This document shows, piece by piece, positions 8,756 through 26,480 of a stretch of 64,000 bases of DNA. Source of the stretch: Trueperaceae bacterium. Its GTDB lineage: Bacteria; Deinococcota; Deinococci; Deinococcales; Trueperaceae. Within the stretch, counting starts at the first letter, position 1. The number at the start of each line of letters is the position of its first letter. Position numbers and translations under genes: made by a program. The notes under the pieces are model-generated. The model did not search any database. It was not told the DNA's origin and worked only from the letters and a program-made list of their open reading frames with translations. The stretch lies in contig DASSXV010000025.1 in the NCBI GenBank assembly GCA_035703635.1, positions 1 to 64,000 of the forward strand. Direction: 5' to 3'.

Positions 8756-8867
8756 TCCTGATGATACCGGCGGGCGTTGGAGAGGGGGCTGCGAACTACC
8801 TGACTACTGGCGCCAAGTCGGCACGGTTACTCTAAGCGAGCCACCAAGTGGCAGTACGGAGGCGACC

Positions 8868-9811: not shown

Positions 9812-12052
9812 TCAGTGACCCGCCCGTCGCGCTCGTTCGGCTAGGCGCGCGAGCGGGCCGGGCAGCCACCAGTTCCAGCGCCCTGCCAAGGTCATGACCG
9901 ACGGCACCAACGCCAGGCGCACGAGCGTGGCGTCGAGGATTATCGCCACCGTCAGGCCAAGACCCAACGTGCGGATGAGCTCGACGTGCGAGAAGAGCAG
10001 CAACGCGAACACCGTCACCATGACGGCCGCCGCGCTGGTGATCACCCCGCCAGTACTCGAAAGCGCTGTTGCTACCGCGTCGTGGTCGGACATGCCCTTC
10101 TCGTGCGCCTCATGGATGCGCGCAACCAAGAACACCTCGTAGTCCATGCTCAGACCGAACACGATGGCGAAGATGAACAGCGGAGCAGAAGTATCGATAT
10201 AGCCGAGGACGCTGCCAACACCGAACAGCTTGGTGAAAACGCCGTCCTGCAGCACTAGCGTCAGGAACCCGAAGGTGGCGCCGACGGTAAGGGCGTTCAG
10301 GAGCACCGCCTTGATGGGGATGAGCAGCGAGCGGAACGCCCACCCGAGGAGCACGGCCGTCACGAGCGCGACTAGGGCGAGGGCGAGCGGAAAGTAGGCG
10401 TATAGCGCCTTCGTCCACTCGCTGCCCTGCACGTAGACGCCGCCGATGCGGGCGTCGAGTTGGGCGGCGGCCAGCGCCTCTTCAATGCCGCGGTACACTT
10501 CGGCCCCCGCCGCTGGGGTGAGGTCACCGCCTGGCACGACGCGGGCGAGAACGTAACGCCCGTCACGGCTGATGGTGGCGCGCGCGAGCGGCGCGATCTC
10601 GCTGTTGAGGGCCGTCTCCTTGGTGGCGTAGTACTGGTAGAGGAAGAGGCGGGGGACGCCCTCCAACGCCATGGGCGAAGACACGCCGGACACGCGTGGG
10701 AGCTCCTTGAGTCGCGCCGTCAACAGGGAGACCTTGCGCACGTTCTCTGGGCGAAAGAAGCCGTCGCTGCCGAAGTCTATGAGCACATCGAACGGGTTGA
10801 GGAGCCCCTCCAACCCGAGCCCCTCGAGAGCCGTGAGGGTGCGGCGCGCGTCCGTAGCCGTCGTCAAGCCGCGCGCGCCTGGGTCGGCCACCTGCATGCG
10901 CAAGGACGGCAGGGCGAGCAGCACGAGGATGCCGACGCCGGCTATGGACCACAGCCACGGCCTTCGCATGATGGCTATCGCGCGGGCGCGCCAGAACGCG
11001 CGCGTGCGCAGGCCAGGCTCGCGCCTCGTGACGCGCAGCCAGTTGACTCTGTGCCCTAACAACGCCAGGGTGGCGGGCACGGCCGTTATGGCGACCAGCA
11101 CGCTGACGACGAGCACTACCATGGTGCCGATGCCTATCGATCTGATGAAGGCGACTGGTGGAACCAGCAGCGCCATCAGCGCGACCATGACCGTCAGGCC
11201 GCTGAAGGCGACGGCTTTGCCCGCCGTAGCCGCCGTGCGCGCGGCCGCTTTGCGCGCGTCGAACGTGCTCCTCAGCTCCTCGCGGTAACGGTTGACGATC
11301 AGGAGGGCGTAATCGATGCCCGTTGCCAACCCGAGCATCGTGACGATGGTCTCCGTGAACACGGCGAACTGGATGACCTGGCCTAAGAAGTAGAGGAGCG
11401 CAAGCGAGATGGCGATGGACGTCACGGCACTTAGGAGCGGCAGTAGCGACGCGACCACCGCACCGAAAGCGACGAGCAGGATGAGCAACGAGATCGGTAA
11501 GCCGAACAGCTCCGCGCGCCTAGCATCGCGCGTGCTCACCTCCTCCAACTCGATGACAGTCGCTGGCCCGCCAGACAGGTCGAAACGCATGGCCTTCTCG
11601 GCGGTCAGCACGCGCCTGACGCCTTCCGTTACGGCCTTGCCGCGGCTTAGGTCGTTAGCGTCGATGCCGATGAGCATTATCGAGAGGTCGTTCTGCGCAT
11701 CCAGCAAGTCGAGGCCGCTCGCGCTGCGGTAGTCCTGAACGTAGGTGACGCCGTCGCTAGCAAGCAGCTTCGCCTTGATGGCGTCGAGCTCGGCGGCGTA
11801 CTCAGGCGTACCCGCATGAACCGCGACGCCGTGAGCGACGGCGACCAGCGCCGCCTCCTCGGGGTTGGCGAAGGACGTGGCAAGCAGGTCCTGAACGATC
11901 GCGGCGTTGCCGTGCTGCGGCGCGTCCGGTTGGGCGTTCAGGACGTCGCCGACGTGAGTGGTGAACGGCAGCGCCGCCAGGCCGAGCGCGAACCACACGC
12001 CGAGGACCCAGCGCGGGTAACGCGAAACGAGCTCGCCGAGCGCCGTGAACAT
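9812..12052 (-). CDS. MMPL (RND-family) transporter
   Basis: LGLATGIDYALLIVNRYREE, FGLSMDYEVFLVARIHE, DATLVRLALVP; two TM bundles. Confidence 0.93.
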   Translation of the reverse strand: MFTALGELVSRYPRWVLGVWFALGLAALPFTTHVGDVLNAQPDAPQHGNAAIVQDLLATSFANPEEAALVAVAHGVAVHAGTPEYAAELDAIKAKLLASDGVTYVQDYRSASGLDLLDAQNDLSIMLIGIDANDLSRGKAVTEGVRRVLTAEKAMRFDLSGGPATVIELEEVSTRDARRAELFGLPISLLILLVAFGAVVASLLPLLSAVTSIAISLALLYFLGQVIQFAVFTETIVTMLGLATGIDYALLIVNRYREELRSTFDARKAAARTAATAGKAVAFSGLTVMVALMALLVPPVAFIRSIGIGTMVVLVVSVLVAITAVPATLALLGHRVNWLRVTRREPGLRTRAFWRARAIAIMRRPWLWSIAGVGILVLLALPSLRMQVADPGARGLTTATDARRTLTALEGLGLEGLLNPFDVLIDFGSDGFFRPENVRKVSLLTARLKELPRVSGVSSPMALEGVPRLFLYQYYATKETALNSEIAPLARATISRDGRYVLARVVPGGDLTPAAGAEVYRGIEEALAAAQLDARIGGVYVQGSEWTKALYAYFPLALALVALVTAVLLGWAFRSLLIPIKAVLLNALTVGATFGFLTLVLQDGVFTKLFGVGSVLGYIDTSAPLFIFAIVFGLSMDYEVFLVARIHEAHEKGMSDHDAVATALSSTGGVITSAAAVMVTVFALLLFSHVELIRTLGLGLTVAIILDATLVRLALVPSVMTLAGRWNWWLPGPLARLAERARRAGH

Positions 12053-12058
12053 CAGGGC

Positions 12059-12796
12059 TCAGCTCGCCAAGAAGGCGTCGATCACCTGGCGCGCACCCAC
12101 GTCGTGGTTCCTCGTCTCGCCCGCCACGAGGCCGTCGCGCAGGAAGACGATGCGGTCGGCAACTAGCGCGGCGGCCGGGTCGTGGGTGACCATGACGACC
12201 GTCCACCCAAGCTCGTCGACCCCGCGCCGCAAGAGCGCGAGGACTTCGTTGCCCGTCTTCGTGTCGAGGTTGCCGGTTGGCTCGTCCGCCAGCACGACCG
12301 CTGGGTCGTTGATGAGCGCCCGCGCTAACGCCACGCGCTGCCGTTGCCCACCGGACAACTGCCGCGGACGGTGGCTGAGGCGGTCGCCGATGTTGAGCTG
12401 CACGGCCAGGTCCGCCAGCCGCTCGCGCCCGCTTGCTAGACGCCCCGCCACCTCGGCGGGCAGGAGGATGTTCTCCTCGGCGCTGAGGTTGGGGATGAGT
12501 TCGAACGACTGGAAGATGAACCCCAAGCGGTCGCGGCGCAGGGCCGTGAGCTCGTCGTCGCTTAGGCCGTTGGTTGCCTGGCCTGCCACGGACACGGTGC
12601 CGCTGTCTGGCTGGTCGAGGAGGCCGAGCATGTGCAGCAGAGTGCTCTTCCCGCTGCCGCTAGGTCCCATCACTGCCACGAACTCGCCTTCGCTTACTTC
12701 GAGGGTGACGCCGTCGAGCGCGGGGATCACCTCGTCGCCAAGGTGGTAGGTCTTGCGCAAGTCCCTAGCGGACAGCGCGAGTGGTTTCTCAGACAT
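12059..12796 (-). CDS. ABC transporter ATP-binding protein (LolD/MacB-type)
   Basis: GPSGSGKST, LSGGQRQRVALARAL, LADEPTGNLD, VTHD. Confidence 0.95.
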   Translation of the reverse strand: MSEKPLALSARDLRKTYHLGDEVIPALDGVTLEVSEGEFVAVMGPSGSGKSTLLHMLGLLDQPDSGTVSVAGQATNGLSDDELTALRRDRLGFIFQSFELIPNLSAEENILLPAEVAGRLASGRERLADLAVQLNIGDRLSHRPRQLSGGQRQRVALARALINDPAVVLADEPTGNLDTKTGNEVLALLRRGVDELGWTVVMVTHDPAAALVADRIVFLRDGLVAGETRNHDVGARQVIDAFLAS

Positions 12797-15356
12797 GCTC
12801 ACTCCATGCGGCGAGGGCGCGCGTTGGCGACATCTTCGCCGCGCGCCTAGCGGGCAGTAATGCGGCCACCAGCCCGATGAGGGGCGAAACGATCAGCGCC
12901 AACAACGCTAGCGACCAGGGCACGAGCGGCTCGAGCACGAAGCCAGTCAAAGCGCCCGCGCCGTTCGTGATGATGCGGGCGAGCAGCAGCCCGAAGGCCA
13001 CCCCGATGATGGCGCCCATCGTCGTCACGACCACCCCCTCGGCCGTCACCAGCGCCCGCACGCCAGCGCGCGTCAAGCCGATGGTACGTAGAACGGCGAT
13101 CTCGTGACCGCGACTGACGAGGTTCATGCCCAACGTGTTCGCCACTCCGAGCGCCGCCACCAGCACGGCGATCACGAGCAGCACGCGCGTGGTAGCGAAC
13201 GCCTGGGAGGTGACCTCGAGGATGTAGCGCTTGTAGTCGGCGTTGAGGGTTATGTCAAGCGCCAGGTCGGGGAAGGTCGCTTGGAAGCGCTCGCTCACTG
13301 CCTCTTGCGACTCGCCCTTCTTGAGGACGACGACGAAGAGGTCCGGGTTGCCTCCGCCGAACTGGGCGATCTCGTTGATGCTGCCAACCACCGTCTCGCC
13401 GCCGCCAGTGAAGTCCACGACCACCCCAGCGACCTTGAACGGCGCGAAACCGTTGCTGGTGCGCAGCTCGATGGTGTCGCCTTTGACGATGCCGTAACGG
13501 TCACGCATGGTGTTCGCGATCAGGACCTCGCCGGCTCGCAGCGCTTCGTAGCCCGTCTCGTCGTCACCCTGACCGGGCAGGTACTGGAAGCGGCCGAAGC
13601 CGCCGTTAGGGTCGAAGCGTTCCGGGTCGACGAGGACGAGGGCGACTGAGCGGCCACGCGTATCTTCGGCTGACTGCAGGAACCTGACCGCCGTGATCTT
13701 CACCCCGCTAGCGACGTCCACCCCTGCGATGGCCTCTGCGCGCGTGGCGAAGTCGCTCGGGAAGGTGACGGGGGCCGTGATGAACAAGTCACCGACGACC
13801 GTCGTCTCGACCCATGACGAGATCGCGTGGTTAGTGCTGCCCACCATGCTGCCTACCCCGATCACAAGGCCAGTTCCGACGACTACCGTGCCGATGGCTA
13901 CGCCGTTGCGCGCCCCGTTGCGCTCCGCGAAGCTGGCGCCCAGCTTGCCGGCTGGCCCGAAGACGCGCGTTAGCGGGCCGCGCAGCACGGCCACCATGGG
14001 GGGCAGCGCGTAAGGCGCCGTCAACGCCACCCCGAGGAAGAACAACCCCAAGGCTACGGTCGTCGCATACAGAGCGGACGTGCCTGGCCACGGTAGGAGC
14101 GCCGCCGTCGTGCCGACCACGACGAATGCCAGACCAAGTAGGGCCTGGCGCGTGCTTAGCGGCTTCTCGACCGCCTGCAGCGAGGAGATGGGCGAGGTGC
14201 GCCCGGCGTTGCGCGCCGGAATCAGACCAGCAACGAGCGCGGCAGCGACGCCGAGAACCGAAGCGACGAGCACGTTCTGCACCGGCAGCACAAGCGTGCG
14301 GAACTCGTAGCCGAGGGTGGCGGCGTTGAGGTAGGTGATGACGTACGAGAGCACGACTCCGAGCACTATCCCGCTGATGACGCCGAGCACCGCCAACGCG
14401 AGCGCCTCGTAGAAGGCCAGCCGCATGATGGCGCCCCTCGTCATGCAGATGGTGCGCAGGAGGGCGTACTCGCGCGACCGCTCCACGACGGAAGCCATGA
14501 ACGTGTTGTATGCGAGGAACGCGCCGAGCGCCAACAAGGTGGCGGCAAGGACACTCAACCCGGACTGCAGCGTCTGCACGATGCCGAAGGTGAAGTCGCC
14601 GCTCCCGGCTGGCAAGGTCACCGTGTAGGCGTCGCCCGCCAGGGAGCCGAGGCGAGTCGCCACCGCCTGCACGTCGTCGACGTCGTTGACCTGGATCTCG
14701 ATCTGGGAGATGCGCCCCTTGAGGCTGAGCACGCTCTGGAGGTCAGCCAACGCCATGATGCCGACGCGGCCGCCGTTGGTGCTTGCCACGCCGACCGCGT
14801 CATCGAGCAACCCGGTGACGAGCAACGGCACTGGGCCGCCTGACGTCGTGAAGTCGACCGTCTCGCCGACACTGATGCCACGCGCTTTGGCGAAGCCGTC
14901 AGCTATGGCGATCCCGCGTGAGCCCGCCGCAGGCAGCGCTCCGGTGGCGAGCTTGGCCGGAAGGTCGTCTACGAACTGCGTGAGCCGCCCCTGGATCTGG
15001 AAGCCGCTATCGATGCCGGGTATGACGGACTTCTCGACCGTCCTAACGCTGCGCAGCGGCTCCGCGCGGGTTTGCAGCACTGGATAAGCCGCCTCGACGC
15101 CAGCGTCCGCCCTCACCTCAGCGAGGAGCGGCTCGCTCTCGAACACGGAGCGCCCGCCGGCCCCTGTCGTGAGGAGTAGGTCGGCCTTGCCTGCCGCGGC
15201 CTGCAGTGCGCTGCGGAGGTTAGCTTCGACGTTCGCCCCGACGGAGAGGGTCGTCAGCACGGCCGCGATGCCAAGCCCGATCCCCAACGTCGTAGCTAGG
15301 CTGCGCCACGGGTGACGGAAGAGGTTGCGCATGGCCAGGCGCCCTAGAGTGCTCAC
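12789..15356 (-). CDS. FtsX/MacB-type ABC permease with duplicated MacB_PCD-FtsX units
   Basis: LAMRNLFRHPWRS, ERSREYALLRTI, GHEIAVLRTIGLT, PARRAAKMSP; TACACT 7 nt upstream of GTG. Confidence 0.9.
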   Translation of the reverse strand: MSTLGRLAMRNLFRHPWRSLATTLGIGLGIAAVLTTLSVGANVEANLRSALQAAAGKADLLLTTGAGGRSVFESEPLLAEVRADAGVEAAYPVLQTRAEPLRSVRTVEKSVIPGIDSGFQIQGRLTQFVDDLPAKLATGALPAAGSRGIAIADGFAKARGISVGETVDFTTSGGPVPLLVTGLLDDAVGVASTNGGRVGIMALADLQSVLSLKGRISQIEIQVNDVDDVQAVATRLGSLAGDAYTVTLPAGSGDFTFGIVQTLQSGLSVLAATLLALGAFLAYNTFMASVVERSREYALLRTICMTRGAIMRLAFYEALALAVLGVISGIVLGVVLSYVITYLNAATLGYEFRTLVLPVQNVLVASVLGVAAALVAGLIPARNAGRTSPISSLQAVEKPLSTRQALLGLAFVVVGTTAALLPWPGTSALYATTVALGLFFLGVALTAPYALPPMVAVLRGPLTRVFGPAGKLGASFAERNGARNGVAIGTVVVGTGLVIGVGSMVGSTNHAISSWVETTVVGDLFITAPVTFPSDFATRAEAIAGVDVASGVKITAVRFLQSAEDTRGRSVALVLVDPERFDPNGGFGRFQYLPGQGDDETGYEALRAGEVLIANTMRDRYGIVKGDTIELRTSNGFAPFKVAGVVVDFTGGGETVVGSINEIAQFGGGNPDLFVVVLKKGESQEAVSERFQATFPDLALDITLNADYKRYILEVTSQAFATTRVLLVIAVLVAALGVANTLGMNLVSRGHEIAVLRTIGLTRAGVRALVTAEGVVVTTMGAIIGVAFGLLLARIITNGAGALTGFVLEPLVPWSLALLALIVSPLIGLVAALLPARRAAKMSPTRALAAWSEHV

Positions 15357-15432: not shown

Positions 15433-16545
15433 ATGCGGATCCTCTACGTCGCAGACGACCTTTACGAGGGGTACGGCGGGCAGGCGCGTGCGACGGAGGG
15501 ACACCTGGCGGCGTTGGTCGCGCGCGGGCACACCGTGACAGCCGTAGCTGGGCGAGAGCCGCACCCTACGGTTCCGCCGCCTGGCGTAAGGCTAGTGCGG
15601 ATGCCAGCCGTGCAGCTCGGGAACGCTCAGACTAGGATCGCCTACCCCATCATCGGAACGCTGGCGCGCGAGATCAGCCAGGCTGACGTGGTGCAGGCGA
15701 ACACGCCAGCCATCCTCACCGCGGCAGCGCTCCTCCTCGCGCACCGTCAGAACGTGCCCGTCGTGCTCGGAGTGCACACTCAGATCGAGACGAGCACGCT
15801 GCAGCTGCCGCGCTTCGGCGGCGTCGTGGCTGACCTGCTGCGGCGCTGGTACCGCTGGCTCTTCTCCCGCGCCGACTTGCTCGTCGCTCCGACGGAGTTC
15901 GCTGCGGCGACTAGCAGGGCGTTCTCGCACGTGAGGGTGGAGGTCGTGTCGAACGGCATCGACTTCGGGAGCTACTCGCGGCCGCGCACCGCAACTGCCG
16001 GTCGCCAACTCGCTTACCTTGGCCGCTTGTCGGCCGAGAAGCGACCGCAGGACTTGCTGAAGCTGATGAAGGCACTGCCAACCGACCATCACCTCGTCAT
16101 GGCAGGCACGGGCCCGCTCGCCGCCGAACTAGCAGAGCGTTTCGCGGCGGAGGGATTGGCCGGGCGAGTGCGCCTCGCTGGTTTCATCGACGAGGACGAG
16201 AAACGCGTGCTCCTCTCGCAGACGGACCTATTCGTCATGCCGTCACCGGCCGAGTTGCAGAGCATCGCCACCCTAGAGGCGATGGCGGCCGGGTGCGCCG
16301 TGGTCGCGTTCGATTACGCGAGCAGCGCCGTTCCGCGCCTCGTGACGGAGGCGCAGGCGGGCGTGGTCGTGCCCGCGGACGACGCCGTGGCGCAGGCGGC
16401 CGCGGTCGTCGAGCTGCTTAGTGACCATCAGCGCCTGCGCGCAGCGCAGGAGAGCGCTCAACGTTACGCGGCGCTGCACGACGTAGCGCGCAGCGCGGAG
16501 CGCCTCGAGCAGCTCTACTCCGAGTTGGCGAGCGCAAGGAGGTGA
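15433..16545 (+). CDS. GT4 glycosyltransferase (glycolipid alpha-glycosyltransferase-like)
   Basis: VVSNGID, YLGRLSAEK, FVMPSPAELQSIATLEAMAAG. Confidence 0.88.
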   Translation: MRILYVADDLYEGYGGQARATEGHLAALVARGHTVTAVAGREPHPTVPPPGVRLVRMPAVQLGNAQTRIAYPIIGTLAREISQADVVQANTPAILTAAALLLAHRQNVPVVLGVHTQIETSTLQLPRFGGVVADLLRRWYRWLFSRADLLVAPTEFAAATSRAFSHVRVEVVSNGIDFGSYSRPRTATAGRQLAYLGRLSAEKRPQDLLKLMKALPTDHHLVMAGTGPLAAELAERFAAEGLAGRVRLAGFIDEDEKRVLLSQTDLFVMPSPAELQSIATLEAMAAGCAVVAFDYASSAVPRLVTEAQAGVVVPADDAVAQAAAVVELLSDHQRLRAAQESAQRYAALHDVARSAERLEQLYSELASARR

Positions 16546-18401
16546 CGAAAGTGAAGAGCAGCGAACCTGTCTCACTGCAAGGACGCGTGGTGGCCGTGAC
16601 GGGCGCAAGCGGCGGCATCGGGTTGGCTAGCGTGCGCCGCCTGGTGGCCGCTGGCGCCACCGTGCGGGGGCTGACGCGCACGGCAGCAGGTGCCGAGCAT
16701 CTGCGTGAGGCCGGAGCGCAGGCGGTGCAGGGCGACATCGCCGATGCGAACGCGCTAGCCGCGCTGTTCGCTGGCGCTGACCTCGCGCTGCACCTCGCGG
16801 CGTGGATGGGCGGCAAGGGCGGCGCGGCCGAGGCGCAGCGCGTGAACGTCGAGGGTACGAGGGCCGTGGCTAGCTCCGCGGTCGCGGCGGGCGTGAGCCG
16901 CCTGGTTCACGTGAGCAGCATCGCCGTGTACGGCCCTACGCTCACGGGCGACGTGACAGAATCCCACCCTACGCGCGAGGTCGGGGACCCATATGGCGAC
17001 ACCAAGTTGCGCGGTGAACAGGTCGTCACGGAGGTGACCGCTGGCGGCCCCGAGCTAGTGATCCTGAGACCCACCATGGTGTACGGGCCTCGCGTGGCTT
17101 CCTGGACCCTTACTCCCCTCAAGGCCCTGGCGGCGGGCGCGCCGCTGGTGTTCGGCAAGGGCGACTACGTGCTAGACGCCGTGTACGTCGACGACGTCGC
17201 GCGCGCGGCGGTGTTGGCGCTCACCGCGCCCGCTGCGAGCGGCAGGACCTACAACGTCACTGGCGCGGCAACCACCTGGGGCGAGTTCTTCGGCGCGTAC
17301 GCTGCCATGCTCGGCAAGCCGCTGCGGCGCCTGCCAACGTGGCTCGTGCGCGGCGGGGCACGCTTCGCGGCTACCGTCACGCGGCCGCTCGGTGACGCGC
17401 GCGTCGTTGGCGAGACGGTGGAGACGATGCTGAGCCGCGCCACCTTCAGCGGGGCGGCGGCCGTCACCGACCTTGGTTACGCGCCAGCAGTCTCACTCGC
17501 TAACGGCATGCGCACGACGGCCGCCTGGCTGCGCACGGCCGGCTACCTGAGCGGACCGCGCGTAGCCATGGTCGTTGGAGCGGGGAGCGGCCTTGGCCTC
17601 GCCGTGGCTGAGGAGCTGGTCCGCCGCTACGTGCCGCTGGTGGCCGCGGACCTCGACCCGACCGCGCTCAACGCCGTGCCGTCGTTGGCCGGCGCCACCG
17701 TCGTCACCCTAGACGTCCTAGACCCCGCCAGCATCGCCGCGGCCTTGAAGGGCGTGAGCGAGCTAGGGATGGCGCCTGACGCCGTCGTCATCACCGTCGG
17801 CGGCCTCAAGCCGGGCGCGCTCGAGTCTCAACCGCTGGCGGACGTGCGCAGACAGCTCGACTTGAACGCCATCGGGCCGCTCAACGTGGTGAGGGCCGTA
17901 GCTCCAGGCATGCGTGCTCGGGGCCGCGGGCGCGTGGTGGCCGTCGGCTCGACGAACGGGCTGCTCGTCACGCCGTTCATGGGCGCTTACTCGGCCGGCA
18001 AGTTCGCGCTCGAGGCGCTCATGGACGCCCTACGCCTCGAGCTGCGGCCGTTCGGAGTAGAGGTCGTGCTCGTGCAGCCGGGCGCCATGCGCACGCCGTT
18101 CGCTGCCCGCGCCAAGGCGCAACTGAGCGCGGAAGCAGAGCGCACCGGTGCGCCGTGGGACGCCTACCTGAAGCGCCTGCGCGACTCCAACCTTTGGGGC
18201 GAGAGCAACGCGGCGGACCCTGCGAAAGTGGCCAGCATCGTGGTGCGCGCAGCCACGAGCAAGCACGCCCCTGCTAGGGTACGCGGCACGCCGGAGGTGC
18301 CGTTCGTGCGCTTCTTCTCCTACTTCCCCGATCGCATCAAGGACTTGCCTTTCGTTCGGCCACTAGGCCTCAAGCGTCCGAACGGTCGTCGCGCTCGCTA
18401 A
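16542..18401 (+). CDS. fusion of an extended SDR (NAD-dependent epimerase/dehydratase) and a classical SDR
   Basis: N-half TGASGGIG, HVSSIAVYG, YGDTK, RPTMVYGP; C-half VGAGSGLG, YSAGK, VQPGAMRTPF. Confidence 0.88.
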   Translation: MTKVKSSEPVSLQGRVVAVTGASGGIGLASVRRLVAAGATVRGLTRTAAGAEHLREAGAQAVQGDIADANALAALFAGADLALHLAAWMGGKGGAAEAQRVNVEGTRAVASSAVAAGVSRLVHVSSIAVYGPTLTGDVTESHPTREVGDPYGDTKLRGEQVVTEVTAGGPELVILRPTMVYGPRVASWTLTPLKALAAGAPLVFGKGDYVLDAVYVDDVARAAVLALTAPAASGRTYNVTGAATTWGEFFGAYAAMLGKPLRRLPTWLVRGGARFAATVTRPLGDARVVGETVETMLSRATFSGAAAVTDLGYAPAVSLANGMRTTAAWLRTAGYLSGPRVAMVVGAGSGLGLAVAEELVRRYVPLVAADLDPTALNAVPSLAGATVVTLDVLDPASIAAALKGVSELGMAPDAVVITVGGLKPGALESQPLADVRRQLDLNAIGPLNVVRAVAPGMRARGRGRVVAVGSTNGLLVTPFMGAYSAGKFALEALMDALRLELRPFGVEVVLVQPGAMRTPFAARAKAQLSAEAERTGAPWDAYLKRLRDSNLWGESNAADPAKVASIVVRAATSKHAPARVRGTPEVPFVRFFSYFPDRIKDLPFVRPLGLKRPNGRRAR

Positions 18402-19404
18402 CCCCGTGACCGAGAGTCGCCGCCTGCGGTCGGCGGCGTGAAAGCAACAGCCACGCGCTGAGCGGCCCCAGCAAATAGGCGAGGTAGAAGGTGGTGGCGC
18501 GCCACACGAGCACGGGCGCCGCAACGGACTTGAGCTGTGACCCGGCCGCTCCAACCGCCAGCCCGAGGAGCAACTCCATGACGCCCGACGCGCCAGGGGT
18601 CGGCACGAAGAACGACAGCAACGTGATCATCGATAGCAGGGCGAGCACATCGAGCAGGCGCACGTCCGCGCCGTACATGACGAGCAACGCCCAGAAGAGC
18701 GCGAAGCTCGTCAGCCAGGCTGTGAAGTTGGCGACGTGAAGCGAGAGCCAGTAACGCAGCGGCAGGTCCCGGAAAGCCGTGGCGCTGGCGTGGTACTCGA
18801 TTGCGACCCGCCGCAGGCGGCGCTGGAAACGCGCGAGGAGGCGCCAGCTCGCCAAGGCGTGCAACCCGCGCACTACGGGGCGCGGGAAGCGCACGAGCGC
18901 GACGGCGCCGACGAGCGCAAGTAGAGCGCCGACCCCAGCGCCTACCGACAGCCATGGACCAAGTACCACCGGTGTTGCCAACAGTAGATAGGCGAGTCCG
19001 ATAGGGATGAGCAACCCGAGGGCGGCGAGGTCGAGCACGAAGAGCTGGACGGCCATCGCCAGGCCAGCGCCCGCCGGCACGCCGACGCGCTCGAGCGCGA
19101 CGACGAGGAAAGGCGCCCCGCCAGTGCCAGCCGGAGTCGTGGCCGTTCCGAACACCTGCGCGACGTGCGCCAAGAAGGCGTGCCACCAGGTCAACGGGTA
19201 GCCTTGGTAGCGCGCGAGCAGCACGAGTTTAGCGACCGGCGCCAGCCACAGCGCCACCAGGGTCAGAACGGCGAAGATCAGCAGCCAGGCGGGTAGTTCC
19301 TTGGGGGCGTAAAGGGCAGCGGAGAAGATCTGCTCGCGCGTCGCCAGGTAGAGGCCGGCAAGGCCGAGCCCGACACTCAACAGCAGGAGCAGCACGAGGC
19401 GCAT
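18370..19404 (-). CDS. lysylphosphatidylglycerol-synthase-TM (UPF0104) flippase-like membrane protein
   Basis: Multiple TM helices; TTPAGTGG, FVPTPGASGVME, LVWRATTFY. Confidence 0.8.
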   Translation of the reverse strand: MRLVLLLLLSVGLGLAGLYLATREQIFSAALYAPKELPAWLLIFAVLTLVALWLAPVAKLVLLARYQGYPLTWWHAFLAHVAQVFGTATTPAGTGGAPFLVVALERVGVPAGAGLAMAVQLFVLDLAALGLLIPIGLAYLLLATPVVLGPWLSVGAGVGALLALVGAVALVRFPRPVVRGLHALASWRLLARFQRRLRRVAIEYHASATAFRDLPLRYWLSLHVANFTAWLTSFALFWALLVMYGADVRLLDVLALLSMITLLSFFVPTPGASGVMELLLGLAVGAAGSQLKSVAAPVLVWRATTFYLAYLLGPLSAWLLLSRRRPQAATLGHGVSERDDRSDA

Positions 19405-20636
19405 CAGGCGCCTTGCCTAACGGCCTTTGCGCCTGGGCGCCCTGTTATGAGCGCGCGCGTTACCCTCTCGAAAGGCAAGTCCGCTAACGGCGGTTGGGTA
19501 GGTAGCGCCTCGCCGCATGCCACTGAGCGGACGTGGGCGGCGGCGCGGCGCGCCATGCCGGGGAAGTCGAGCGCCGCCGCGTGAACGCTGGCCGCGGCTA
19601 GCCGTGCCGGCGCGTCACGCCAGGCGGCAACGGCCGCGGCCAGGTCGACGGTGGACGTGATGCCGCCCAACTCGCGCTCCTCCAGGAACCGGACGACGGC
19701 CGCCTCGTTGAGGCCTGCGTACGCCGTGACCAGCAGCGGACGGCCGACGGCAAGGGCCTCCATGGTGCTAGCAGGTCCGGCCTTGCCCACCACCAGGTCG
19801 GCGGCGGCGAGGAGGGTCGGCATGCGGTCCGTGAAGCCGAAGGCCGTAAGCCCGGGGTGCTCCGCGGCCAAGTTGTCGAACCGCGCCTTCAGCTCCGCGT
19901 TGCGGCCAGCTACCGCCAGCAGGCGAGAGCCGGTCGAGAGGATCTGTTCGGCCATCGCCACCGCCTCGCCGGCCAATCCCTCGGCGCCGAGCGTCAACAG
20001 CGTCGTGAAGCCGGGCTCAGCGAGGCCGAGTTCAGCGCGGGCCGCAGCTCGAGCTGGCGGGGCGAGGAACGGTTGCCTAACCGGGTAACCAACGACGTGC
20101 ACCCGCTCAGGCCTCACTCCGAGCCGCACGAGGTCTTCCCGCGCAGCGACGCTAGGCGCGAACACGAGCTCGCTGCGCGGCTCCGACCAGAGCGCGCTGG
20201 CGTCGAAAGGCTCGGTGGCGTAGATGACGACCGGTGCTCTAAGCCCGTAGCGCGTGCGGGCAGCCGCGAACACGGTGGCGAGCCAGCCGTGGTTAGCGAC
20301 GACGAGATCGGGCCCCAGCTCGTTGAGCTGCCGCGCCAGGCTCCTAGCGAAGGCGTCGAGGGTGAGGCTTTGCGAGAGCCGCGTGACGCAAGGGGCAGCG
20401 TCGCTTAACCGTTGGCCGATGCGCACCAGCTGCGGGCGCCGCAGGAGGGCGCGCCAACTCGCCTTGTGGCGCCTGTCGAGTGCGGCGGCGCCGAACTCCG
20501 CCATCACGTCACTCACGCGGGTGGTGAAGTCGTCCGGGTAGTAGGCGTGCAGCGCCTCGGCCAACGCCGTCGCCGTCGCCACGTGACCACCGCCAGCCGC
20601 GATGGTGGCGAAGAACACGTGGCGCGGCTGCCCCAT
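19404..20636 (-). CDS. GT28 MGDG-synthase/UgtP-like glycolipid glycosyltransferase
   Basis: AGGGHVATA, GYPVRQPF, AGRNAELK, DLVVGKAGPASTMEAL; ATG 20636 overlaps the upstream stop (TGATG). Confidence 0.88.
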   Translation of the reverse strand: MGQPRHVFFATIAAGGGHVATATALAEALHAYYPDDFTTRVSDVMAEFGAAALDRRHKASWRALLRRPQLVRIGQRLSDAAPCVTRLSQSLTLDAFARSLARQLNELGPDLVVANHGWLATVFAAARTRYGLRAPVVIYATEPFDASALWSEPRSELVFAPSVAAREDLVRLGVRPERVHVVGYPVRQPFLAPPARAAARAELGLAEPGFTTLLTLGAEGLAGEAVAMAEQILSTGSRLLAVAGRNAELKARFDNLAAEHPGLTAFGFTDRMPTLLAAADLVVGKAGPASTMEALAVGRPLLVTAYAGLNEAAVVRFLEERELGGITSTVDLAAAVAAWRDAPARLAAASVHAAALDFPGMARRAAAHVRSVACGEALPTQPPLADLPFERVTRALITGRPGAKAVRQGA

Positions 20637-21631
20637 CAGGACCGCCCCTGGCGGCCGAGCGCCGCAACGGTAGCGGCTACGCCGGCGCGCCATGAGACTT
20701 GCGGTTCGTAACCTAGTTCTTCGATGGCGTGGCGCAGAGAGAAATGCACGTCGTTGAGCATGAGGCCAGCACGGTAACGCGTTACGGGAGGCTCGAGCGA
20801 AGGCAGTAGGGCAGACCAGGTCGCCTCTACGCCGCTGGCCAGCGCGCGAGTCGGCCTGCCCGGAAGGCGCAGCCGCGGTCCCTCACCCCCCTGGTCGTCG
20901 GCGATGGCGTCGAAGAGCTCGCGCCAACTCGGCATCCCGGCGTCCGCGATGACGTAGACCTTGCCTGCCGCCCGTGGCTCGTGCAGCGCCAGTACGACGC
21001 CGCTGGCGAAGTTGGGGGCGTACGCCGTGTTGAAGACGGCCGCTCCACTGCGCACGAGCGGCAACGTGCCCTTCGCAACGGCCCGCGCCACGCGCCCGAA
21101 CGTCTGGTCACGCTCCCCGAACGGCCACAGGCCAGGCCGCACTACTACGCTCTCGAGGCGCTTCTCCCCAAGCACGAGGTCCTCGGCCAAGATCTTGGAG
21201 TACGCGTAGGCGTTACGCAGGTTGTCGCGCGGTTGCGTGCGGGGGTCGGCGTTGCGGAAGCCAGAGTAACGGTGCACGGCCACGCTCGAGATGAACAGGA
21301 AGCGCTGGCAGCCGGCGTGGGCCGCCTCATGGAGCAGCGTCCGCGTTGCGACGACGTTCGTGCGGTAGAAGGCGTCCCACGGGCCCCAATCGGCGACCCT
21401 GGCGGCGGCGTGCACGACGGCGTCGACCCCGTCGCACAGTCCATGGACTCCCTCGTCGTCCGTCAGGTCCGCGCGCACGATCTCGAGGCGGTCATCGCCC
21501 TGCAGGTTGGCGAGGCTGGCGTCGGAACCCCACGGCGTGACCAGCGCTCTGACGCTGTCCTGGCTGGCGATAAGCTCCTCGCAGATGTGGCTGCCAAGGA
21601 AGCCGTGGGCGCCGGTGACGAGCACCTTCAT
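20636..21631 (-). CDS. extended SDR / NAD-dependent epimerase-dehydratase, candidate ceramide reductase (CerR-like)
   Basis: MKVLVTGAHGFLGS, HAAARVADWG, FISSVAV, YAYSKILAE; CerR role inferred from context only. Confidence 0.8.
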   Translation of the reverse strand: MKVLVTGAHGFLGSHICEELIASQDSVRALVTPWGSDASLANLQGDDRLEIVRADLTDDEGVHGLCDGVDAVVHAAARVADWGPWDAFYRTNVVATRTLLHEAAHAGCQRFLFISSVAVHRYSGFRNADPRTQPRDNLRNAYAYSKILAEDLVLGEKRLESVVVRPGLWPFGERDQTFGRVARAVAKGTLPLVRSGAAVFNTAYAPNFASGVVLALHEPRAAGKVYVIADAGMPSWRELFDAIADDQGGEGPRLRLPGRPTRALASGVEATWSALLPSLEPPVTRYRAGLMLNDVHFSLRHAIEELGYEPQVSWRAGVAATVAALGRQGRS

Positions 21632-21694
21632 GGCGTCACGCCGAGGACGGGGTGGCGGGTACAGGTCATCTCCAAGACGGTAGCAGTCCGAGGC

Positions 21695-22429
21695 TCAGTT
21701 GAGCAGGTGCCCTGAGCGCGCCAACACGGCTAAGTCGAGCGCGAGGCCGATGGCGAGATGCAGCAGCAGCGAGTAGAGGATCGAGCGACTGCGGACCGCT
21801 ATGACCGCGAACAAGATGGAGGCTGGTGCGGCGGCCATGACCTCCGCTAGCGGCTTGCCTAGGTGCACGAGCGTTGCCATGACGACGCTAAGCCACAGCG
21901 CGACTGTCGGGCTGGTGGCCCGCGTGGCTACGGAGAGCACGAAACCGCGGTAGAACCCCTCGAACGCCAAGTAGTAGAGGCCGTAGATGACCGACCATTG
22001 TGCGAGGTGTGCCGCGCTCGATCCGACCCAGGTGCCGGCCCACGGGTAGGTCGCGGCCAGCGTCGGATCCGTGCTCGCGAAGTACATGAGCACGGCGGCA
22101 AGCAGAGCAAGCGGAACGGCGGCGGCCAAGCCGAAACGCCAGTCGCCGATGCGGAAGCCAGCGCCCTCGAGCGGCCCGATCAGGAAGCGGTAGAAGACGG
22201 CCGGGATGAGCAGGAGGAGGATCGCGGACCACGCCACGCTGGAGAACGCAGCCAGTGGCTCCTGTGGAGCCATGCGCAATAGCGTTGGGCCCGGCGTGGC
22301 CAAGTACCAGAAGGCGGCCTGTAACACCAACGAGCCGAGTAGGAAGAACGCGTATTTCGCGCGCTCGCCCCGTGGGAAGAGTGCTCCTAGGTCGGCCGCG
22401 ATGAGCCTAAACGCGGCCCAAGGCTTCAT
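21695..22429 (-). CDS. CPBP (Abi/CAAX-protease-like) intramembrane protein
   Basis: Multi-TM; FEGFYRG, LVHLGKP, RSRSILYSLLLH. Confidence 0.8.
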   Translation of the reverse strand: MKPWAAFRLIAADLGALFPRGERAKYAFFLLGSLVLQAAFWYLATPGPTLLRMAPQEPLAAFSSVAWSAILLLLIPAVFYRFLIGPLEGAGFRIGDWRFGLAAAVPLALLAAVLMYFASTDPTLAATYPWAGTWVGSSAAHLAQWSVIYGLYYLAFEGFYRGFVLSVATRATSPTVALWLSVVMATLVHLGKPLAEVMAAAPASILFAVIAVRSRSILYSLLLHLAIGLALDLAVLARSGHLLN

Positions 22430-23535
22430 AGCTCCTTCTGCACCATGCGGTATGTCTTATTGTGCACCCCACCAGAGGCCTCGATCGCGCGGTTGATGGC
22501 GTGATTGTCCTCTAACGTCCAGCCGCATTCGCCTTCCCTGATGCCGACCTGGTACGCGCGCTTGACCGACTCCTCGATGAGGATGAGGTCGAAGCCCCGG
22601 TTACGGTGCTCGGGCAACACGCCCAAGATGACGAGGCGCGCGCGGTTCATGATCTGCTTGCGGCGCAGCAGCGGCAAGATGCCAGTGACGAGGCGGCCGT
22701 CGAAGTGCGCGAGGACCTGGTTGAGGTCAGGCACGGCTATCGACACGGCGACAGGTTCGCCCTTGTACTCGAGGAAGAGCGCCAGCTCGGGGTTGACGAT
22801 CATCTTCAGCTCGTCTGCCATGTGCGCTATCTCGGCGTCGGTGAACGGCACGTTGCCCCAGTTCTTCTCCCACGCCGCGTGGTGGATCTTCTGTAGCAGC
22901 ATGACTTCGGCGTGGAAGTTCTTGAGGTCGGCTTTGCGGATGACGGGTTGGTAACGCTCCCGCGAGCGCCTGACCAGGCGCGCGACGCGCTCGGGCAAGA
23001 CGCCCTTGTTCTCGAAGTGAAAAGTGTAGAGGTCCTTGACCTTCGCGTAGCCAGCCCCCGTTGCGAGTTCAAGGTAGCCGCGCGGGTTCTGCGGCATCAT
23101 CACGTACGGTTTCTCTTCGAAGGCGTCGACCTGGAAGCCAGCGCCGTCGTTCATCGTCGGGTTGGCTGGGCCCCTGACCGCCTTACGTCCAAGGCCGCGG
23201 GCCTCGGCTTCGACGGCGGTGAACAGCGCCTTGGCCGTCTCGGCGTCCTCGGCCTCGAAGAACCCGAAGAACGCCACGTTATCTTCCGGGTGCGTGGCGT
23301 TGTGCAAGTCGTCGTCGATGCACGCGATGCGCCCGACCACGCGGCCAGCACGCCGCGCGAGGTAATAAGTCGCGCGTGCGTGCTCGAAGAACGGGTTCTT
23401 CTTGGGGTCGAGCAGTTCGAACTGCGAAACGCGTAACGGCGCCACCCAACTCGGGTCGGCAGCGTACTTGCGGTACGGGTAGAGGACGAACTCCTTGAGC
23501 GCCTTGCCGCTGGTTACGCGTTCTACGTCGACCAT
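22426..23535 (-). CDS. GNAT N-acyltransferase of the bacterial ceramide synthase (bCerS/YghO) family
   Basis: DPSWVAPL, KNPFFEHA, VVGRIA, FFGFFE, RGPANP, AWEKNWGNVP, PDLNQ, LGVLPEHRNRG, WTLEDN; 6 nt downstream of spt. Confidence 0.82.
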   Translation of the reverse strand: MVDVERVTSGKALKEFVLYPYRKYAADPSWVAPLRVSQFELLDPKKNPFFEHARATYYLARRAGRVVGRIACIDDDLHNATHPEDNVAFFGFFEAEDAETAKALFTAVEAEARGLGRKAVRGPANPTMNDGAGFQVDAFEEKPYVMMPQNPRGYLELATGAGYAKVKDLYTFHFENKGVLPERVARLVRRSRERYQPVIRKADLKNFHAEVMLLQKIHHAAWEKNWGNVPFTDAEIAHMADELKMIVNPELALFLEYKGEPVAVSIAVPDLNQVLAHFDGRLVTGILPLLRRKQIMNRARLVILGVLPEHRNRGFDLILIEESVKRAYQVGIREGECGWTLEDNHAINRAIEASGGVHNKTYRMVQKEL

Positions 23536-23541
23536 CGACGG

Positions 23542-24777
23542 CTAGATTACGCCGAAGCGCCGCCCGACATCGGCGAAAGCGTGAAGCAACGTGTCGAGTT
23601 GTTCGTCAGTGTGGTTGGCATTGACACTAGTGCGGATGATGGACTTGCCCGGCTGCACGCCGGGTGGGAGGGCGGGCGTCGTGAACACGCCCAACTCCCA
23701 TAATGCCTTCCAGAACGCCATCGCCAGTTCGTCAGGACCGATGAGAACGGGCACGATAGGCGTCTGTGACCCGAGGGTGTCGAAGCCAAGCGCGTTCATG
23801 CCCGTGCGCAGGCGCTCGACGTTGCGCCACAAGTGCTCGCGGTGCTCCGGTTCCGTCTCGATGATGTGGAGCGCTTCTAGCGCCGCCGCCATCTGCATGG
23901 CGGGCAGAGCAGCGGTGAAGATGAACGGGCGGGCGTGGTGCTTGACGTAATTGACGACGGCATGATCGCCGGCCATGAACCCGCCGACGCTAGCGAACGA
24001 CTTCGAGAAGGTGCCGACGAGCACGTCGACTTCCTTCTCCAACCCGAAGTGCTCGCCCGTCCCGCGGCCGTGGTCGCCGAGCACGCCACTGGCGTGAGCG
24101 TCATCGACGATCAGGCGCGCGCCGTAGCGCCGCTTCAACTTCACGATGCCTGGCAAGTTGGCGATGTGGCCGCTCATGGAGAACACGCCGTCCGTGACGA
24201 TGATGCGGCCGCCCGGCTTGTCGACGTCGGCCTCGAGCAGGCGCTCAAGGTCATCGAGGTCGTTGTGCTCGAACTTGCGCAAGGTGGCGTAGGAGAGGCG
24301 CGCAGCGTCGTAGAGCGAAGCGTGGTTCTCGCGGTCGTAATACAAGATGTCGTGGCGCCCCGCGAGCGCCGAAACCACCGAGAGGCAGCCGAGGTAACCG
24401 GCGCTGAAGGTCAGCGAGTCTTCCTTCTGGAAGAAGTTGGCTAGGCGGTGCTCGAGCTGCTCGTGGAGCGTGAGCGTGCCGGTGAGGAACCGCGAGCCGG
24501 TGCAGCTAGTGCCGAAGTCATCGAGTGCGCGGCGCGCTGCCTCTTTGAGGCGCGGGTCTTGCGTGAGCCCGAGATAGTCGTTCGAGCCGGTGATGACCAT
24601 GTCGCGGCCGGCAACACGGACGCTGCCGCCGTGCTGTGACGCGATGGGTTTGAAGTACGGGTGCATGCCAGCTGCTACGGCTTCGTCAGCCCTGCGGAAC
24701 TGGAACGCCTTCGCGAAAGCGTCCTGCGCCTTGGCTTGCGGGGCACCATCCCTCTCATTGCGTGATACGTCTGACAA
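23542..24777 (-). CDS. spt: serine palmitoyltransferase-type alpha-oxoamine synthase
   Basis: HPYFKPI, GSNDYLGLT, GTSCTGSRFLTGT, NHASL, DDAH, GTFSKSFASVGGF (PLP lysine), ARPFIFTAALP; GGAGG before TTG 24777. Confidence 0.8.
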   Translation of the reverse strand: MSDVSRNERDGAPQAKAQDAFAKAFQFRRADEAVAAGMHPYFKPIASQHGGSVRVAGRDMVITGSNDYLGLTQDPRLKEAARRALDDFGTSCTGSRFLTGTLTLHEQLEHRLANFFQKEDSLTFSAGYLGCLSVVSALAGRHDILYYDRENHASLYDAARLSYATLRKFEHNDLDDLERLLEADVDKPGGRIIVTDGVFSMSGHIANLPGIVKLKRRYGARLIVDDAHASGVLGDHGRGTGEHFGLEKEVDVLVGTFSKSFASVGGFMAGDHAVVNYVKHHARPFIFTAALPAMQMAAALEALHIIETEPEHREHLWRNVERLRTGMNALGFDTLGSQTPIVPVLIGPDELAMAFWKALWELGVFTTPALPPGVQPGKSIIRTSVNANHTDEQLDTLLHAFADVGRRFGVI

Positions 24778-25024
24778 AGGTCCCTCCATGGACGGGCGCT
24801 CGGGTGCGCGCATCGTAGCACCTGACGGGGCGAGTGCGCGGCCGAGCCAAGCGTATAGAAGTCGAGCGGTCCTTACAACCTTGTAGGCCCCAACGGGCCT
24901 TTCTGGATGTGAACCAACTGACACCGCCGCGGCCAGCACCCGATTGATAGAATCGCCTCGTGCCTTTCATGGCTATGAGTTCTCGCCACGTTTCAGTCCC
25001 GCGGCGCGTAATGCGCCTGGAGGG

Positions 25025-25555
25025 GTGACTAGTTTGATACCACTGCTTTCTCAGGTGCGGACCCGGCCCGTCACCTTGGCCGACGCACCCCTCGTCCACG
25101 AGCTCTACGTGGCCACACCAGGCTATTTCGACATCATCTCCATCCCCGTCCCGACCTCATCGGAAGTGAGCACCGACTTATCGACCGCCATCGAGGATCC
25201 GCGGCGTTACGTCGAACTCGTGCTCTTGGAGCCGGAGGAGGCGGGGCCAGAATGTGGGATCGACCCCGTGTCGGGGGCGGCGGTCGTCGGCTACCTCGAT
25301 TACAAGCTCGATTACCCGCAGGAGGGCGACGCGACCGTCAACCTGCTGCTCGTACGCTCCGGTCTGCAAAGCCACGGGGTCGGGAGCGCCTGCGTGAGGA
25401 ACCTCGAGGAGCGTCTTCGCGGCCGCAGCGGCCGCCTGCTTGCCAGCATCTACGGCGAGAACCCGCGGGCTAGGCGCTTCTGGGAGAGCCTCGGCTACCG
25501 CTTCGCGATCGACGCTAGGCCCCTGCTCGAGTGGTACAGCAAGAGCCTGACGTGA
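25025..25555 (+). CDS. GNAT N-acetyltransferase
   Basis: LLLVRSGLQSHGVGS, NPRARRFWESLGY; GGAGG before GTG 25025. Confidence 0.82.
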   Translation: MTSLIPLLSQVRTRPVTLADAPLVHELYVATPGYFDIISIPVPTSSEVSTDLSTAIEDPRRYVELVLLEPEEAGPECGIDPVSGAAVVGYLDYKLDYPQEGDATVNLLLVRSGLQSHGVGSACVRNLEERLRGRSGRLLASIYGENPRARRFWESLGYRFAIDARPLLEWYSKSLT

Positions 25556-25559
25556 CCGA

Positions 25560-26480
25560 ATGAGCGAGCGCGCCCTGCAGGTCGTAAGCGTGTCTTTGGG
25601 TTCAGTCAAGCGCGATACCGATCAAGTGGTCGAGGTACTCGGCCGCAGGGTTCACTTGCGCCGTGTAGGCACGAACGGCGATCTAGCTGCCGCCGAGGCG
25701 ATGATCCGCGAGCTAGACGGCAAGGTCGACGCCATCGGGCTTGGCGGCATCGACCTCTACTTCGCGGTCGGCGAACGCCGATATTACGTGAGAGACGCCC
25801 TGCGGCTGGCTAGGGCGGCACGAGAGACGCCTGTGGTTTGCGGTGCTGGCTTGAAGAACACCCTCGAGCGGCTGAGCATCAGGTCACTGGCAGGTAGCAT
25901 CGGCTGGCGCGGGCGCAAGGTCCTCATGGTGTCTGCCGTGGACCGCTTCGGCATGGCGGAGGAACTGGCCAGTCAGGGCGCGGACGTGTTCTATGGCGAC
26001 GTCGTCTTCGCTCTCGGCCTGCCGGTGCCCGTCAGGACGCTGCCTGGCCTCGTCCGCTTGGCCAACGTCCTGGCCCCAGTCGTGGTGCGTGTGCCCTTCA
26101 AATGGCTCTACCCGACGGGCAGCGCGCAGGAGAAGGCGCCCGACGGCCGCAAGTTCGCCAGGTACTACGATTGGGCCGAGGTCTTGGCCGGCGACTGGCA
26201 CTTCATCAAGCGGTACGCCCCTGAGTCGCTGGCAGGAAAGGTCGTCCTCACCAACACGACCACTCCAGACGACGTCGAGTTCCTACGCCAGCGCGGCGCC
26301 GCTGCCCTCATCACGACCACCCCGCGCTTCCAGGGGCGCAGCGTCGGCACTAACCTGCTGGAGGCCGCGTTCGTCGCCATGGAGGGCGCGAAAGCGGAGT
26401 TGAGCCCAGCGCGTTACCAGGAGCTGATCGAGCAGGCGCGCCTACTGCCGACCCGCATCGACTTGCAGACCTCGGCGTAA
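25560..26480 (+). CDS. conserved protein of unknown function (family often auto-annotated 'quinate 5-dehydrogenase')
   Basis: VVSVSLGSVKRD, RRVGTNGD, GLKNTLER, AGDWHFIKRYAP, GRSVGTNLLEA; family recognised from memory. Confidence 0.6.
   Translation: MSERALQVVSVSLGSVKRDTDQVVEVLGRRVHLRRVGTNGDLAAAEAMIRELDGKVDAIGLGGIDLYFAVGERRYYVRDALRLARAARETPVVCGAGLKNTLERLSIRSLAGSIGWRGRKVLMVSAVDRFGMAEELASQGADVFYGDVVFALGLPVPVRTLPGLVRLANVLAPVVVRVPFKWLYPTGSAQEKAPDGRKFARYYDWAEVLAGDWHFIKRYAPESLAGKVVLTNTTTPDDVEFLRQRGAAALITTTPRFQGRSVGTNLLEAAFVAMEGAKAELSPARYQELIEQARLLPTRIDLQTSA

Follow-up and report, generated by a model that had tools for sequence, protein, structure and literature searches.

Bacterial ceramide synthesis is known from the Spt-bCerS-CerR pathway, for which a 2022 paper by Stankeviciute et al. 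is said to be a further source. The three genes are CC_1162, CC_1154 and CC_1164 in Caulobacter and spt, yghO and epi in Escherichia coli BL21 according to PMC9386255, and the core pathway has already been predicted in 40 phyla, as stated by Ding et al. (2024, PMC11334938). Here we analyze a gene cluster in a stretch of 64,000 nucleotides (the window; contig DASSXV010000025.1, assembly GCA_035703635.1) from a Trueperaceae bacterium. The cluster combines an Spt-like alpha-oxoamine synthase (AOS), a YghO/bCerS-type GNAT N-acyltransferase, a CPBP membrane protein, an extended short-chain dehydrogenase/reductase (SDR), a GT28 glycosyltransferase and a UPF0104 membrane protein. We read it as encoding the synthesis of a ceramide-type membrane lipid that is glycosylated (probability roughly 0.6), with steps deduced from homology, clustering and conservation. 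The original prediction, made from the DNA alone, had proposed a complete (glyco)sphingolipid pathway of Spt, bCerS and CerR with extra tailoring and transport genes. Homology and linkage support a ceramide-type core with glycosylation and flipping genes, while the terms "complete" and "CerR" were overstated.

Gene cluster in the window

Six minus-strand open reading frames (ORFs) are tightly packed within 18370-24939, and Pfam and NCBIfam searches confirm the families of all six. From the AOS to the UPF0104 gene, successive ORFs are 6 nt apart, overlap by 4 nt, are 63 nt apart and then overlap twice by 1 nt, so that the ORF coordinates and Pfam bear out the proposal of six co-oriented genes with overlaps or gaps of at most 63 bp. 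The cluster and two convergent genes, which the original prediction did not include and which are probably part of the same module, are as follows.

23542..24789, minus strand: Spt-like AOS, a pyridoxal phosphate (PLP) enzyme (Aminotran_1_2 and AOS trees)
22426..23535, minus strand: YghO/bCerS-type tandem-GNAT N-acyltransferase (YghO homology and Acetyltransf_1)
21695..22429, minus strand: CPBP/Rce1-like polytopic membrane protein (Pfam Rce1-like, 34.2 bits)
20636..21631, minus strand: extended SDR, candidate 3-keto reductase at the CerR position (Pfam Epimerase, 103 bits)
19404..20636, minus strand: GT28 lipid glycosyltransferase, MGDG-synthase/UgtP-like (Glyco_tran_28_C and MGDG_synth)
18370..19404, minus strand: UPF0104/flippase-like membrane protein (LPG_synthase_TM and TIGR00374)
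16542..18401, plus strand: fused double SDR (extended and classical), convergent with the operon (Epimerase and adh_short)
15433..16545, plus strand: GT4 glycosyltransferase, upstream of the double SDR and overlapping it (Glycos_transf_1 and Glyco_transf_4)

The longest ORF of the AOS is 23542-24939. Its start is likely the ATG at 24789, the Met at which the alignment with orthologues of the same genus begins. The longest ORF of the GT28 gene likewise extends to 20693 (19404-20693), and the second ATG, at 20636, is most likely the start.

Alpha-oxoamine synthase

The AOS is a fold-type I PLP enzyme: Pfam Aminotran_1_2 matches with 210 bits, above the cut-off, and the lysine of its GTFSKS motif aligns with Lys244 of Sphingobacterium multivorum SPT. 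All four motifs named in the original prediction are present (HPYFKPI at residue 93, GSRFLTGT at 148, GTFSKS at 309 and RPFIFTA at 337). The best NCBIfam match is the CFB-type Spt model. Among PDB sequences S. multivorum SPT ranks first (343.8 bits, spanning AOS residues 77-458), followed by Thermus BioF/Kbl (293 bits), Sphingomonas SPT (≈270 bits), cysteate acyltransferase (258.7 bits) and Kbl (246 bits). The protein is 40% identical to E. coli Spt, an enzyme for which PMC9386255 reports activity.

Signature residues point the same way. T-G-S-R, S-K (with the catalytic lysine) and T-A are common to the AOS, E. coli Spt and six GNAT-linked or same-clade AOS, while the same positions read A-S-V-R, G-K and S-N in E. 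coli Kbl and G-G-S-G, G-K and S-T in BioF. At the positions that PMC10196870, in its passages on the S. multivorum active site, describes around PLP and L-serine, the AOS carries the Spt residues, including those at the serine side chain (Asn52, Gly80, Ser81 and Ser243-Lys244).

Two trees were built. The quick one held 85 sequences, namely all AOS extractable from the 80 GNAT loci described below, the relatives, E. coli Spt, BioF and Kbl, and paralogues from the order. The careful one used 45 of these, chosen to span all clades, and left out HemA and the PDB sequences, S. multivorum SPT among them. Kbl/BioF-type rows split from all others with a Shimodaira-Hasegawa-like approximate likelihood ratio of 100 in the quick tree and with 100/100 in the careful tree (12 Kbl/BioF-type rows). 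Both trees agree in placing the AOS in a clade (100/100) of Trueperaceae, four Rubrobacteraceae-type rows and a sister family (f5). The phylogeny with Spt, BioF and Kbl thus puts the AOS on the Spt side of the 100/100 split, in a tree with HemA left out.

The genome has two AOS genes. The second exceeds the cut-off of the glycine C-acetyltransferase model (668 bits) and is followed by tdh; by its sequence it is the housekeeping Kbl. Both trees, the signature residues and this separate kbl-tdh pair agree with the proposed Spt-type rather than Kbl/BioF assignment, and we regard the AOS as Spt-like by descent on these sequence grounds.

N-acyltransferase and linkage across phyla

The GNAT adjoins the AOS with a 6-nt gap. 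Its Acetyltransf_1 match is barely above the Pfam cut-off (21.3 bits), and it is homologous to E. coli YghO over its full length (366 aligned columns, 30% identity, E 4e-52). In PMC9386255 the Figure 9 legend reads "aca: CC_1154, yghO ECD_02850", which pairs yghO with Caulobacter CC_1154, the proposed N-acyltransferase CerS (PMC11324152). The assignment as a bCerS/YghO-type GNAT is upheld by this homology and by that listing; the link to Caulobacter bCerS and CerR runs via the E. coli cluster and the published gene table.

An AlphaFold model of the GNAT (pLDDT, the predicted local distance difference test, 94.6) found tandem GNATs as its top fold matches, for example MAB_4324 and the mycothiol synthase MshD. 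The predicted fold fits an amine N-acyltransferase and does not indicate the substrate. A PDB sequence search with the GNAT gave only matches with E > 0.3, no NCBIfam model matched, protein atlas names for its matches were generic only and cluster look-ups gave no informative names. The GNAT family comprises 6334 clusters at 50% identity (E up to 0.001), and its representatives include natural fusions of AOS and GNAT (P0187, 780 aa) and of GNAT and an AMP-binding acyl ligase (P0164, 940 aa). Another representative, P0121, is a double GNAT-family protein of 784 aa.

Using a 10-row alignment, with one genome per species and records near the window's own genome excluded, we identified at least 598 GNAT relatives, and the best 80 loci were analyzed. 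An AOS adjoins the GNAT in 62/80 loci, nearly always immediately upstream and on the same strand, and an extended SDR lies alongside in 55/80; several of the 18 loci without AOS are short contigs. The phyla include Actinomycetota (Rubrobacteraceae), Myxococcota, Gemmatimonadota, Bacteroidota, Ignavibacteriota, Zixibacteria and Acidobacteriota. The predicted set of AOS, GNAT and SDR therefore recurs as a triad across phyla. By homology it is the triad of PMC11334938, a source which states that the Spt-bCerS-CerR genes are often clustered. The Myxococcota-type AOS (L032, L037, L042, L044, L055, L067, L074 and L098) are ∼526–533 aa long and exceed the others by ∼120 residues.

Reductases

The best NCBIfam model for the extended SDR is the OleD-type 2-alkyl-3-oxoalkanoate reductase (145.7 bits), followed by HpnA, both below the cut-off. 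The protein is 30% identical to the E. coli CerR-like protein, epi (72 bits). The N-terminal half of the double SDR scores 74 bits against the same protein, and the SDRs adjoining spt/bcerS in other phyla score 79–144 bits. In an unrooted SDR tree of 69 rows, a clade of 58 rows (support 89) unites E. coli epi with the spt-adjacent SDRs, the Rubrobacteraceae ones included, and the N-terminal half of the double SDR forms a separate clade with its Rubrobacteraceae counterpart (99). The claim of a complete Spt, bCerS and CerR set is not supported at this point: the extended SDR, which reaches 72 bits against epi, lies outside the CerR-like clade of the unrooted tree, so that its orthology to CerR is not clear.

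The double SDR has a Pfam Epimerase domain at residues 17-239 and an adh_short domain at residues 341-526. Its classical half scores 134 bits on the KdsR (3-ketodihydrosphingosine reductase) model, below the cut-off. Both the extended SDR of the operon and the convergent double SDR are candidates for 3-keto reduction.

Glycosyltransferase and membrane proteins

The GT28 protein has two domains above their cut-offs, MGDG_synth (34.7 bits, cut-off 25) and Glyco_tran_28_C (36.6 bits, cut-off 22). In the PDB it matches Arabidopsis MGD1 with 87 bits and, with 49.7 bits, a processive diacylglycerol glucosyltransferase. Expression of Bacillus subtilis UgtP in Mycoplasma pneumoniae gave glucosylceramide, as described in PMC11234194, and a ceramide acceptor is therefore plausible for the GT28 family by analogy.

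The UPF0104 protein matches LPG_synthase_TM (87.3 bits, cut-off 33.4) and the flippase-like family TIGR00374 (72 bits, cut-off 43.2). Domain matches and co-conservation make it plausible that the GT28 and UPF0104 genes serve tailoring and flipping, in line with the extra tailoring and transport genes of the original prediction; these functions are predicted ones. According to the Caulobacter authors, flippases for bacterial sphingolipids are not yet identified (a statement in PMC11087976), which makes a flippase candidate in the cluster of interest. The CPBP gene is kept at 5/6 relatives' loci and in 0/80 loci of other phyla, Rubrobacteraceae included, and appears from these counts to be Trueperaceae-specific.

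Conservation in Trueperaceae and the block shared with Rubrobacteraceae

The order of all six genes is kept at 4/6 relatives' loci (G003, G019, G020 and G022); the locus of G024 keeps the first four genes and that of the sister family the GNAT alone. This conservation of gene order across Trueperaceae genera is far beyond chance. The double SDR and GT4 genes stand beside the cluster in G003 and G022. A GNAT (E up to 1e-30) is found in 105/128 Trueperaceae genomes (104/127 when the unpublished genome G107 is excluded), in 69/79 of those of high quality and in 34/36 genera. One Trueperaceae genome has a GNAT match with 10 stop codons (G119:C8:2887-3981), probably a pseudogene.

Three other families of the order, sampled with 12 genomes, yielded no GNAT; their best AOS matches, if any, are 36–44% identical, as expected of Kbl/BioF. 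The sister family f5 has both an AOS (58–59% identical) and a GNAT (37–39%) in 4/4 genomes. There the two are unlinked, with no further cluster gene within 20 kb of either.

GT28 and flippase genes follow the core in only 4/80 loci of other phyla, all of them Rubrobacteraceae-type, and also in G003, G019, G020 and G022; the other 76/80 have the core without either. Among the best 80 loci the AOS of the Rubrobacteraceae are 66–73% identical to that of the window, while those of any other phylum reach at most 53%, which points to lateral exchange of the whole block between Trueperaceae and Rubrobacteraceae. One of the Rubrobacteraceae loci (L026) also has a convergent double SDR (48% identical) and a GT4 gene (46%), laid out as in the window. 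A named GNAT homologue from Rubrobacter taiwanensis is 53% identical.

Genomic context and expression

The host genome consists of 2.9 Mb in 88 contigs and is 97.65% complete. The closest named homologues of the GNAT are "Trueperaceae bacterium" records, and on this basis the contig belongs to the Deinococcota, family Trueperaceae. The G+C content is even over the cluster region. Scans of the region gave 0 promoter-like sites (0.6 expected) and 6 terminator-like sites (5.3 expected), no more than chance in either case.

Contigs from RNA libraries (four runs, two studies) cover 29–30 of 30 bins at ≥95% likeness, with every gene represented, and bridge the AOS/GNAT, GNAT/CPBP, CPBP/SDR, SDR/GT28 and GT28/flippase junctions. 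As RNA libraries may contain DNA, and as a contig spanning two genes does not prove a single transcript, these contigs are a weak hint that the cluster is expressed.

Divergent from the AOS, at 24944-26480, lie genes for a RimI-like GNAT (203 aa) and a 306-aa protein without Pfam or NCBIfam match. The pair is kept in G003 and G022; it probably lies outside the module, because it was not detected in the G019 or G020 loci. Beyond the GT4 gene, 9812-12052 encodes an MMPL transporter, beside which lies a MacB-type ABC pair (ATPase 12059-12802, permease 12789-15356). The MacB gene stays beside the cluster in G003, G019 and G022, and in G018 a divergent YghO-like GNAT (28% identical) adjoins an MMPL gene 42% identical to that of the window. 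The MMPL and MacB-type proteins may be lipid exporters. A 483-aa protein with an LEA_2 (late embryogenesis abundant) domain is encoded at 8352-9803.

At G000:C10:11112-11858 the genome matches LpxC with 199.5 bits, which exceeds the cut-off, while Thermus and Deinococcus control genomes gave no match to this family. The Trueperaceae genome may therefore make lipid A, and a sphingolipid-type lipid need not replace lipopolysaccharide.

Proposed pathway and alternatives

In the pathway that we propose, the Spt-like AOS would condense a long-chain acyl thioester with an amino acid (L-serine being the likeliest) to form a 3-keto long-chain base, which the YghO/bCerS-type tandem GNAT would then N-acylate. 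One reductase domain, of either the extended SDR or the convergent double SDR, would reduce the 3-keto group. The GT28 enzyme would attach a hexose at the free 1-hydroxyl, in the way that its relatives glycosylate diacylglycerol. A second sugar may come from GT4, and the UPF0104 protein would flip the product across the cytoplasmic membrane.

Several observations weigh against this pathway. The AOS stays below all three NCBIfam Spt cut-offs (434.8/640, 391.9/500 and 303/670 bits), and its clade branches as the sister (82/89) of the one that unites E. coli Spt with all remaining GNAT-linked AOS, and not from within it. For these two reasons serine is a predicted substrate that is not bracketed by characterized enzymes. 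The Trueperaceae extended SDR forms a clade of its own (100), apart from the CerR-like clade in the unrooted tree, and the CPBP protein has no place in the scheme. The known acceptor of the GT28 relatives is diacylglycerol. [quoted passage not shown]

The same chemistry with a different amino acid (glycine, alanine, threonine or another), an alternative that the original prediction had also named, would yield an N-acyl amino-alcohol lipid instead of a true sphingolipid. The AOS clade (100/100) does lie outside the one with E. coli Spt, the protein falls below every Spt equivalog cut-off, and cysteate-using relatives show that the superfamily switches amino acid, as PMC13692747 reports. However, those cysteate enzymes carry Gly-Ala where the AOS carries Gly-Ser (same source), the serine-contact residues that PMC10196870 names in S. 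multivorum SPT are kept, and a product without the 1-hydroxyl would deprive GT28 of its usual acceptor type. We consider a switch of amino acid unlikely.

Two adjacent modules without a common substrate, one for plain ceramide (AOS-GNAT and SDR) and one for a diacylglycerol glycolipid (GT28, UPF0104, GT4 and double SDR), would account for the diacylglycerol glycosyltransferases being the best solved GT28 relatives, for the 76/80 other-phylum loci in which the core stands without GT28 or flippase, and for the glycolipids reported from Truepera in PMC3072082. Yet the SDR/GT28 and GT28/flippase junctions are 1-nt overlaps, the Rubrobacteraceae, a family of another phylum, have the entire block with its gene order unchanged, and UgtP can use ceramide according to PMC11234194. 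Such a division of the cluster is likewise unlikely. The proposal that the AOS is a housekeeping BioF or Kbl with unrelated neighbors is close to refuted: its scores on the bioF (379.8 bits) and glycine C-acetyltransferase (357.8 bits) models of NCBIfam are both below the cut-off, the 293-bit match to the Thermus BioF/Kbl structure is set against a 100/100 split from Kbl/BioF in the tree, a true kbl, whose 668 bits exceed the cut-off, lies beside tdh in the genome, and the linkage to the GNAT holds across phyla.

We thus prefer a single pathway to a glycosylated ceramide-type lipid. More tentatively, the Trueperaceae and Rubrobacteraceae, stress-tolerant lineages of different phyla and cell-envelope types, might share a laterally exchanged block of ∼9 kb whose deep-branching Spt-like enzyme, putative non-CerR reductases, GT28, GT4 and flippase make an undescribed glycolipid class, either a glycosphingolipid with an unusual base or a non-serine amino-alcohol glycolipid. 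Such a lipid, if real, could account for part of the uncharacterized "glycolipids" of Truepera.

We found no sphingolipid report for Truepera, Rubrobacter or Deinococcus in a literature search limited to titles, abstracts and main texts. The string "Deinococc" has 0 occurrences in the body of PMC11334938 and of PMC11087976; the supplementary tables of Stankeviciute et al. (2022) and Ding et al. (2024) may already list Deinococcota or Rubrobacter. A joint mention of Truepera and sphingolipid (PMC6801134) is a community survey, and the matches for Rubrobacter and sphingolipid are co-mentions only, as judged by titles and the beginnings of abstracts. The cluster is a moderate surprise, because its core pathway has already been predicted in many phyla. 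If our reading is confirmed, Deinococcota (Trueperaceae) and Rubrobacteraceae would join the producers of sphingolipid-type lipids, and the GT28 and UPF0104 proteins, with the double SDR and GT4, would represent a candidate route of glycosylation and flipping.

Comparison with known systems

The Trueperaceae cluster resembles the Spt-bCerS-CerR pathway in that its AOS gene precedes those for a YghO-type GNAT and an extended SDR, with identities of 40% to Spt, 30% to YghO and 30% to epi. Unlike that pathway, it has no dedicated acyl carrier protein (ACP) or acyl-ACP synthetase among the window ORFs of at least 90 aa, its SDR falls outside the CerR-like clade and its AOS forms a separate clade. 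It also has extras, namely the CPBP, GT28 and flippase-like proteins, the double SDR and the GT4. An intact E. coli cluster (L104, strain BR1220) comprises spt, ACP, epimerase-family and fatty acyl-AMP ligase genes, with yghO divergent. In E. coli K-12 (L017) yghO borders on an IS5 element, and this strain lacks the spt, ACP, epimerase-family and acyl-AMP ligase genes; a yghO DNA query covered at least 80% of its length in 4527/5426 complete E. coli genomes.

The best solved relative of the AOS is S. multivorum SPT (PDB 3A2B and 8GUH), whose contact residues for PLP and serine are kept. The AOS of the window differs in missing the equivalog cut-off of the CFB-type Spt model (434.8/640). The GT28 protein shares its architecture, an MGDG_synth N-terminal domain and a GT28 C-terminal domain, with plant MGD1 and B. 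subtilis UgtP/YpfP. MGD1 and UgtP/YpfP act on diacylglycerol in their hosts, whereas the Trueperaceae enzyme is encoded in a ceramide-type operon. The known glycosyltransferases of bacterial glycosphingolipids, Caulobacter Sgt1/Sgt2 and the Bacteroides alpha-GalCer synthase, belong to families other than GT28, and a GT28/UPF0104 route would differ from them.

The Rubrobacteraceae loci (L026-L029) have the AOS (66–73% identical), GNAT (49–50%), SDR, GT28 (43–48%) and flippase (38–45%) in common with the window. They differ in lacking the CPBP gene and in having a member of the CerR-like clade as the SDR behind the GNAT. Judged by sequence, the Trueperaceae cluster is distinctive in its separate AOS clade, its reductases outside the CerR-like clade, its set of GT28, flippase, double SDR and GT4, and the block that it has in common with the Rubrobacteraceae.

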